Shown here: positions 52,891 to 55,800 of the stretch, piece after piece | How positions within the stretch are numbered: the first letter of the stretch is position 1 | Layout: each line of letters starts with the position of its first letter | Translations under genes and position numbers: made by a program | The notes under the pieces: generated by a model | The model's input: only the letters and a program-made list of their open reading frames with translations | What the model was told of the DNA's origin: nothing | Database searches by the model: none | DNA from: Octopus vulgaris | Taxonomy: Eukaryota | Direction of reading: 5' to 3' | Length of the DNA stretch: 64,000 nt | Assembly: GCA_951406725.2 (NCBI GenBank) | Contig: OX597823.1 | Span: forward strand, 17,422,001-17,486,000

Positions 52891-55800
52891 ATAACAATCA
52901 AGGAACGGCCATAATAGGCCATTCACCCACTAGAAATAACAGCCAAAAGCTTTAACCGCAAAATAACATTAATTCCGTAAACCAGGAGAAAATTGAAAAA
53001 CATTTACCCTGTAATTTCTTAGACGATGCACCGTTTCATCTACCGTTTAATGGTAAACTAACCTGATTAAATTAAATCAAGCCAATCCACCATAGGCCCT
53101 TAGACTCATCAGTAAGAAATAGCCAAGTCGGAACAGATATTTTTCACGAGGCATTCCTCTTGCTACCTCGGCAATATCTGACCTAAAACTTTCAAATCGT
53201 CGCACTCGCGCCAAATTTATCGGCAGCAAATAAATATAAGCCACCGATTCCATTACGGAACTAACCAGAAAATTCATAATTAATCAATATAGGGTGGCAA
53301 AAAAAATTTTGTAGAATTCTTTTGCCACCAGCGGCCTAGTGGGAAAAAATTAAATAGTCATAAACCATTTTTAAGTTCAACATAACAATCAAGGAACGGC
53401 CATAATAGGCCATTCACCCACTAGAAATAACAGCCAAAAGCTTTAACCGCAAAATAACATTAATTCCGTAAACCAGGAGAAAATTGAAAAACATTTACCC
53501 TGTAATTTCTTAGACGATGCACCGTTTCATCTACCGTTTAATGGTAAACTAACCTGATTAAATTAAATCAAGCCAATCCACCATAGGCCCTTAGACTCAT
53601 CAGTAAGAAATAGCCAAGTCGGAACAGATATTTTTCACGAGGCATTCCTCTTGCTACCTCGGCAATATCTGACCTAAAATTTTCAAATCGTCGCACTCGC
53701 GCCAAATTTATCGGCAGCAAATAAATATAAGCCACCGATTCCATTACGGAACTAACCAGAAAATTCATAATTAATCAATATAGGGTGGCAAAAAAATTTT
53801 GTAGAATTCTTTTGCCACCAGCGGCCTAGTGGGAAAAAATTAAATAGTCATAAACCATTTTTAAGTTCAACATAACAATCAAGGAACGGCCATAATAGGC
53901 CATTCACCCACTAGAAATAACAGCCAAAAGCTTTAACCGCAAAATAACATTAATTCCGTAAACCAGGAGAAAATTGAAAAACATTTACCCTGTAATTTCT
54001 TAGACGATGCACCGTTTCATCTACCGTTTAATGGTAAACTAACCTGATTAAATTAAATCAAGCCAATCCACCATAGGCCCTTAGACTCATCAGTAAGAAA
54101 TAGCCAAGTCGGAACAGATATTTTTCACGAGGCATTCCTCTTGCTACCTCGGCAATATCTGACCTAAAATTTTCAAATAGTCGCACTCGCGCCAAATTTA
54201 TCGGCAGCAAATAAATATAAGCCACCGATTCCATTACGTAACTAACCAGAAAATTCAAAATTAATCAATATAGGGTGGCCAAAAAAATTTTGTAGAATTC
54301 TTTTGCCACCAGCGGCCTAGTGGGAAAAAATTAAATAGTCATAAACCATTTTTAAGTTCAACATAACAATCAAGGAACGGCCATAATAGGCCATTCACCC
54401 ACTAGAAATAACAGCCAAAAGCTTTAACCGCAAAATAACATTAATTCCGTAAACCAGGAGAAAATTGAAAAACATTTACCCTGTAATTTCTTAGACGATG
54501 CACCGTTTCATCTACCGTTTAATGGTAAACTAACCTGATTAAATTAAATCAAGCCAATCCACCATAGGCCCTTAGACTCATCAGTAAGAAATAGCCAAGT
54601 CGGAACAGATATTTTTCACGAGGCATTCCTTTTGCTACCTCGGCAATATCTGACCTAAAATTTTCAAATCGTCGCACTCGCGCCAAATTTATCGGCAGCA
54701 AATAAATATAAGCCACCGATTCCATTACGGAACTAACCAGAAAATTCATAATTAATCAATATAGGGTGGCAAAAAAAATTTTGTAGAATTCTTTTGCCAC
54801 CAGCGGCCTAGTGGGAAAAAATTAAATAGTCATAAACCATTTTTAAGTTCAACATAACAATCAAGGAACGGCCATAATAGGCCATTCACCCACTAGAAAT
54901 AACAGCCAAAAGCTTTAACCGCAAAATAACATTAATTCCGTAAACCAGGAGAAAATTGAAAAACATTTACCCTGTAATTTCTTAGACGATGCACCGTTTC
55001 ATCTACCGTTTAATGGTAAACTAACCTGATTAAATTAAATCAAGCCAATCCACCATAGGCCCTTAGACTCATCAGTAAGAAATAGCCAAGTCGGAACAGA
55101 TATTTTTCACGAGGCATTCCTCTTGCTACCTCGGCAATATCTGACCTAAAACTTTCAAATCGTCGCACTCGCGCCAAATTTATCGGCAGCAAATAAATAT
55201 AAGCCACCGATTCCATTACGGAACTAACCAGAAAATTCATAATTAATCAATATAGGGTGGCAAAAAAAATTTTGTAGAATTCTTTTGCCACCAGCGGCCT
55301 AGTGGGAAAAAATTAAATAGTCATAAACCATTTTTAAGTTCAACATAACAATCAAGGAACGGCCATAATAGGCCATTCACCCACTAGAAATAACAGCCAA
55401 AAGCTTTAACCGCAAAATAACATTAATTCCGTAAACCAGGAGAAAATTGAAAAAACATTTACCCTGTAATTTCTTAGACGATGCACCGTTTCATCTACCG
55501 TTTAATGGTAAACTAACCTGATTAAATTAAATCAAGCCAATCCACCATAGGCCCTTAGACTCATCAGTAAGAAATAGCCAAGTCGGAACAGATATTTTTC
55601 ACGAGGCATTCCTCTTGCTACCTCGGCAATATCTGACCTAAAATTTTCAAATAGTCGCACTCGCGCCAAATTTATCGGCAGCAAATAAATATAAGCCACC
55701 GATTCCATTACGTAACTAACCAGAAAATTCAAAATTAATCAATATAGGGTGGCAAAAAAAATTTTGTAGAATTCTTTTGCCACCAGCGGCCTAGTGGGAA

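Follow-up and report, generated by a model that had tools for sequence, protein, structure and literature searches.

The minus strand of the window (the whole stretch of 64,000 nucleotides of Octopus vulgaris DNA analysed here, to which all coordinates refer) carries at 53022-53112 a type I hammerhead ribozyme whose stem II bears a long extension and whose loop I-loop II contact is likely a four-base-pair pseudoknot between two internal loops. The four-base complementarity between internal loop 2 and the stem I bulge is new here. We put the probability that this contact is an activating loop-loop pseudoknot at about 65%; that the extension is a minus-strand RNA helix and that the repeat carrying it is a retrozyme we regard, as a joint claim, as highly probable.

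Results

Read on the minus strand from 53105 to 53038, the feature consists of the 5-nt 5′ strand of stem II (53101-53105), the loop strand AGGGCCT (53094-53100), a 19-nt arm (53075-53093), a 6-nt apical loop, a second 19-nt arm (53050-53068), the loop strand TAAACGG (53043-53049) and the 3′ strand of stem II (53038-53042). Stem II proper has 5 bp, the first of which is G-U here and A-U in most of the family. The extension (53050-53093) is a 19-bp helix of 13 Watson-Crick and 6 G-U pairs, set off from stem II by the 7x7 internal loop 2, exactly as an earlier note on this DNA had described. GGCC at 53095-53098, in the 5′ strand of internal loop 2, is the predicted partner of the stem I bulge, and the 3′ strand starts with TAA in the common variants, its remainder varying by subfamily. 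The minimum free energy (MFE) structure places one extra lone G-C pair within internal loop 2.

Folding of both strands, a check proposed in that note, gave computed energies for the 68-mer of −26.3 kcal/mol for the minus and −9.5 kcal/mol for the plus strand as RNA, and of −5.3 and −4.4 kcal/mol, respectively, as DNA. None of 3000 base shuffles of the 68-mer folded as low or yielded a 19-bp helix, and in a context of 151 nt the folding energy corresponds to z = −2.75 on the minus and −0.22 on the plus strand. That minus is the functional RNA strand is borne out by the hammerhead core, which occurs 18 times on the minus and never on the plus strand of the array, and by the helix variants, 42 of 42 of which fold lower on minus (mean −17.2 versus −7.7 kcal/mol on plus). 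The earlier note had read the strand from the presence of six G-U pairs: the choice of strand stands, the number six does not, as between one and seven such pairs occur per helix variant. The strand inference holds because pairs switch between G-U and Watson-Crick forms.

The helix is kept among homologues whose units diverge down to 74% identity, which answers in the positive the question of pairing in homologues that the note had raised. In 27 distinct diverged copies, 95.6% of 498 helix cells are paired, versus 8-53% in slid registers, where the homologue search patterns left the tested loop bases free, and one pattern together with the parsing fixed the apical part of the helix. Variation is confined to one side in eleven of the 19 pairs and affects both sides in two, including a change from G-C to A-U at pair 16. 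One subfamily has lengthened the helix to 20-21 predicted pairs, and imperfections recur at pair 5 (A-A in 60 of 79 loci) and pair 12 (A-C in 10 of 79).

Around this arm, the core reads C3 U4 G5 A6 N7 G8 A9, G12 A13 A14 A15.1 and U16.1 H17, as is characteristic of a type I hammerhead. Its boxes CUGAUGA (C3-A9, 53112-53106), in which only N7 varies freely and takes all four bases, and GAAA (53037-53034) lie 68 nt apart. The GAAA box, stem III and C17 together occupy 53022-53037, with a self-complementary 12-nt stem III at 53023-53034. Self-cleavage is predicted after H17, here the C at 53022, between 53022 and 53021, and position 17 is C or A in 79 of 79 matched loci. The 5′ strand of stem I (53113-53120) forms 8 bp with 53014-53021, of which three are changed on both sides among family members. 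Stems I-III covary within the family: for the three stems round the core, with stem I open, 94.9% of 1280 cells are paired and six pairs are changed on both sides. The self-complementarity of stem III is kept in nearly all variants, and this stem reaches −17.5 kcal/mol as a duplex between units, versus −0.2 kcal/mol as a hairpin. In a model that does not include the pseudoknot, the monomer reaches its MFE in an inactive fold, with the hammerhead fold lying 4.2 kcal/mol higher.

GGCC of internal loop 2 (53098-53095) is complementary to GGCU in the 5′ strand of the stem I internal loop (L1, 53124-53121), and all four positions pair in 103 of 115 loci (117 minus two that were not parsed, overlapping loci having been dropped and loci chosen for loop mutations excluded). 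The complementarity was predicted from the first subfamilies, at odds of 35%, before a further clade surfaced, here called RACC, that has AACC, GACC or AGCC in the loop and GGUU or GGUC in the stem I bulge; the general form of the match is L1 GGYY to internal loop 2 RRCC. Among the 103 loci, pair 3 is C-G in 80, U-A in 22, U-G in one and C-A in none, and pair 4 is U-G in 83, U-A in 13 and C-G in seven, while pairs 1 and 2 (both G-C) nowhere change on both sides. By eye, about six of the 12 misses are without upstream element sequence and six carry single changes. When the loop strands were swapped among loci, the observed count was reached in 0 of 3000 trials, and swaps at the level of haplotypes gave the same result for pairing at all four positions. 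Furthermore, the match is the sole 4-bp partner within 150 nt that is valid in both clades, being present in 103 of 107 loci with the GG anchor and in 22 of 23 RACC loci, as against 78 and none for the runner-up.

On a tree of 63 of the 103 paired loci, built without the pair columns, pair 3 changed once per side and hence counts as a single event, with the U-G intermediate (L247) as sister to the remaining RACC clade. Pair 4 underwent nine state changes and paired in every state, among loci that had been preselected for pairing. Tests on independent pairs comprised one, five and four pairs, too few for significance, and the distance of L1 from the core correlates with stem II length at a Spearman coefficient of 0.54 among loci that are not independent. 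Across the genome, loop position 3 is changed in no more than 19 single units, of which 16 have intact siblings next to them and none belongs to an amplified lineage; the neighbouring loop bases, by contrast, vary by subfamily. The position before it deviates in 13 among the copies listed, several by indels, and five copies with loop deletions were seen. A fifth pseudoknot pair was considered and dropped: the position is not conserved (U-U, A-U, G-U, C-C and A-C occur). Some L1 bases have a possible alternative use in stem I: three of them could extend this stem through wobble-rich pairs in 11 of 23 RACC loci, and in the window G53124 could close the lower stem I (53124-53127 with 53008-53011), which competes with the pseudoknot.

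The claim of the earlier note that internal loop 2 may supply the loop II contact thus gains a predicted partner and is backed by its covariation with the stem I bulge. A pseudoknot is the likely form of this contact because of the complementarity in 103 of 115 loci, the change of both sides in one clade and the absence of another partner shared by both.

The hammerhead recurs in an array of 18.3 copies of a 491-bp non-coding unit, 99% alike, on the minus strand of 52891-61867, which as a whole is one insertion of a dispersed retrozyme family. All 18 complete units have the motif and 17 are identical across the hammerhead; the unit has no long reading frame, and its RNA is strongly self-paired (z = −5.7 on minus and −3.6 on plus, 60 shuffles each). 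The RNA 3′ end of the array, at unit position ~130, runs into a (TA)n microsatellite (52642-52893), its target, and the 5′ end is truncated within stem III. A second 3′ end recurs in insertions elsewhere in the genome at unit position ~230-244, which corresponds to 53270-53282 on the minus strand; it is not an end in this array. In the 2.8-Gb, microsatellite-rich genome, exact pattern matches number 1902 and 513 for two groups of subfamilies, with 0 for the reversed controls, and unit length across the family is 474-492 nt. Copies that are 99-100% identical lie on many contigs, a sign of recent dispersal. Of 111 RNA 3′ ends in 69 loci, 91 map to unit positions 125-140 or 225-245 and 11 more, shortened by the alignment, to 121-122; (TA)n adjoins 108 of the 111, and 42 loci have an inverted arm.

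Judged by its sequence, the array is a non-LTR retrozyme, with non-coding tandem units that each contain a type I hammerhead, recently dispersed copies and a self-paired RNA. It also has the features of a non-autonomous Penelope-like element, namely fixed 3′ ends, an inverted truncated arm and a (TA)n target; fixed internal 3′ ends, an inverted 5′-truncated arm and (TA)n targeting are described as Penelope-like footprints in the text of PMC8557442 and PMC11167929.

Standard scans miss the motif, as the note had expected. Rfam Hammerhead_1 gives the arm-bearing hammerhead 22 bits against a gathering cut-off of 34 and treats the extension as an insert, and the min-HHR descriptor limits loop 2 to 3-10 nt; another descriptor sets the core spacer at 7-17 nt. 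The long arm is not the sole cause of the Rfam miss, because a short canonical hammerhead in the window (51651, 32.2 bits) likewise falls below the cut-off. At gathering score, the whole window yielded only a U6 snRNA match (49615-49718, plus strand, 97.5 bits) and a marginal 5S rRNA-like match (10885-11007, plus strand, 38.5 bits).

On the RNA side, the data are contigs; one run (X20, a single shallow contig) was discounted as evidence. Loose ends in two presumed-RNA runs match the core of one subfamily with 7 and 4 changes, all of them A>G on the ribozyme strand, and a further loose end has A>G on the opposite strand (by eye). The edited form has two matches in the genome, neither within family copies. 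Compared with 53024-53048 and 53113 of the window, runs X5 and X15 show clustered A>G changes on both strands that affect the GAAA core. These traces suggest that family sequence is transcribed and undergoes A-to-I editing, with the edited duplexes probably formed by inverted arms; the clusters in X5 and X15 are likely A-to-I hyper-editing, which would inactivate the affected ribozymes. The excess of A>G that RNA-like runs show at 53093 was rejected as editing, as a genomic subfamily explains it.

Discussion

The least probable reading attributes the hairpin to a palindrome in the DNA, to chance folding of a strand rich in G and T, or to an error of the assembly. With 185 T and 110 G among 491 bases the unit does favour G-U pairs, and 27 of its 151 predicted pairs are of this type. 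This reading is refuted by the conservation of RNA-type pairing; against it also stand the weak DNA folding of both strands, the 0 of 3000 shuffles, pairing that is kept at 74% unit identity, and the presence of the sequence in contigs of independent runs. Hardly more credible is that GGCC, being palindromic, mediates kissing between two units and so assembles a double hammerhead, which would fit the preference of stem III for the inter-unit duplex. AACC and GACC, found in 22 loci, are unable to self-pair, and kissing of loop 2 with loop 2 is ruled out by the RACC clade through its AACC. Pairing of L1 with loop 2 between two units instead of within one is compatible with the sequence and may occur.

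Two further explanations accept the helix and its strand. The more probable of them, though still unlikely in our view, is that the match of GGYY to RRCC is incidental, the loop acting as a spacer, a protein site or the source of a non-Watson-Crick A-U contact from an A of its 3′ strand. The double change occurred only once, the 11 RACC loci noted above could have another use for their L1 bases, the 3′ strand is A-rich with TAA at its start in the common variants, and the text of PMC2632901 describes for CChMVd (minus) a contact made by an A of the internal loop. Yet neither 4-mer has another conserved partner within 150 nt, C-A is absent among the 103 loci, and the bases of the 3′ strand beside stem II, where the canonical A would lie, vary (G, A or paired). 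Alternatively, the pseudoknot could form and lower cleavage, which we judge somewhat less probable again. Barley yellow dwarf satellite RNA is reported to have a peripheral contact that slows cleavage (PMC3152364), and the monomer already favours an inactive fold; here, however, the spacing from the core is alike in both stems and shifts together, as parallel docking predicts, and most of the loop I-II contacts tested in the work described in PMC3088659 and PMC6155905 activate. We favour the activating pseudoknot. According to the text of PMC3088659, pseudoknots of this kind are predicted in about 40% of hammerheads and are confirmed by mutants. Its four pairs make it a short contact, however: in the same text, shortening a pseudoknot from six pairs to four cost one hammerhead about 20-fold.

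How the activating pseudoknot could work in the element may be outlined as follows. By clamping loop II, the long helix would convert it into an internal loop and increase the self-pairing of the unit RNA; the G-U pairs of the helix would reflect A/G and C/U changes that are tolerated, and would make no special contacts. The pseudoknot, for its part, would dock stems I and II in parallel and raise cleavage at low Mg2+. Cutting would be most efficient in tandem transcripts, in which two self-complementary stems III pair; such transcripts are likely to cut best because the monomer MFE is inactive and stem III pairs far better between units, and best cutting in a tandem context is reported for animal type I hammerheads (PMC4209133, PMC6765202, in the text consulted). 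Released units would then circularise, and a Penelope-like reverse transcriptase would write them back into (TA)n from two fixed internal start points. A Penelope-like family with intact frames of ~800 aa, also ending in (TA)n, is present in the genome but has no sequence in common with the unit.

A broader and more tentative picture, which we think rather doubtful as a whole, would be that docking of the two internal loops by the 4-bp pseudoknot leaves stem II free for a long helix of any kind. The helix would then be a separate RNA module of the retrozyme, for instance a handle for a Penelope-like reverse transcriptase or a substrate of A-to-I editing whose edits are fed back as genomic G-U pairs, and the long-armed class would be widespread and missed by short-loop descriptors.

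As an element, the array resembles metazoan non-LTR retrozymes as the available text of two reports describes them (PMC7229834; 10.64898/2026.07.22.740005): the units are tandem, non-coding and low in GC with one type I hammerhead each, the unit RNA is self-paired, stem III is self-complementary, copies are dispersed, and Penelope-like elements reside in the same genome. The family unit of 474-492 nt compares with 170-400 in Cervera and de la Pena 2020 (PMC7229834) and 51-972 in Li, Clavereau and Pollet 2026 (10.64898/2026.07.22.740005). It differs from the retrozymes described there in the 68 nt between the core boxes and in the predicted pseudoknot as loop contact; mussel retrozyme hammerheads are reported to be without typical loop contacts.

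As a ribozyme, it has several partial counterparts. An unusually long helix II and an internal loop 2 that contacts domain I, by prediction in our case, are shared with CChMVd (minus) (Dufour et al., PMC2632901; also PMC3705267). In that ribozyme, the contact is a reverse Hoogsteen U-A pair between a hairpin loop 1 and a 2:6 internal loop; the octopus ribozyme is of type I, its two partners are both internal loops, and the helix predicted between them consists of Watson-Crick and wobble pairs. As in the pseudoknotted hammerheads of types I-III (Perreault et al. 2011, PMC3088659), peripheral base pairs between stems I and II would replace the non-canonical contact. The cases given in the text of that paper pair a loop with a tail or with another loop, in contrast to internal loop with internal loop here, and highly repetitive type I ribozymes were omitted from part of its analysis. 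Schistosoma SM-alpha has the same type I topology and likewise a stem I internal loop as docking site, but differs in its 4-bp stem II, apical hexaloop and non-canonical contacts (as described in PMC2632901 and PMC6155905).

The satellite RNA of barley/cereal yellow dwarf virus-RPV has a further relevant contact. It is a pseudoknot that joins loop 1 with a stem II bulge. This RNA is alike in its peripheral stem I-stem II contact and double-hammerhead cleavage, and unlike in being a plant satellite RNA whose contact lowers the cleavage rate (as described in PMC3152364 and PMC6155905). Contacts by an internal loop 2 and contacts by a pseudoknot thus each have precedent separately. A literature search of the available text returned no octopus retrozyme hammerhead and no paired internal loops in a type I retrozyme hammerhead. 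In our view, ribozyme and element both belong to known classes, and what is new in the octopus sequence is the structural variant.

The 'atypical hammerhead' of the earlier note is hereby narrowed to a hypothesis of four base pairs. Pairing of this kind may explain why hammerheads of animal retrozymes can seem to be without the usual loop contacts. In this one genome, thousands of copies escape descriptors with a loop 2 of at most 10 nt or a core spacer of at most 17 nt. A scaffold for ribozyme switches would also be at hand in a natural ribozyme that can bear a stem II arm of at least 19 bp without losing its tertiary contact.

Several other observations concern related elements. A broken Penelope-like reverse transcriptase frame lies on the minus strand at 17278-19300 and belongs to a family that ends in (TA)n at the 3′ side, many copies of which have open frames of ~800 aa with a Cys motif ahead of a GIY-YIG-like domain. 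Pfam gave no match for its four fragments, and no hammerhead was found in its examined 3′ ends. It was rejected as sequence parent of the unit, with which it has no common sequence; comparison of the unit with 10 loci of this one family, for sequence shared with the terminal repeat of an autonomous partner, yielded only short words at chance level. In three pairs of arrays on different contigs (L270/L278, L281/L286 and L282/L283), the same rare change occurs in exactly one unit, a hint that the template of some arrays was a multi-unit transcript and not a single circling monomer.

Further hammerheads accompany the family. At 51115-51905 (plus strand), ~1 kb from the 491-bp array, a separate 352-bp dimer that ends in (TA)n constitutes a second retrozyme family; it carries short canonical type I hammerheads at 51651-51695 (32.2 bits) and, with a core change, at 51299-51343. 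Elsewhere in the genome, an unrelated type I family (L032, L033 and L036, at ~1500-1610) has a long branched stem II insert and 108-nt Rfam matches above the cut-off, so that long arms recur. Finally, a small two-armed inverted element at 19540-19960, both ends of which run into (TA)n, has a short-stem-II hammerhead in each arm, with cores at 19684 (minus) and 19743 (plus), and a related element (L212) has, by eye, a longer stem II with an internal loop.
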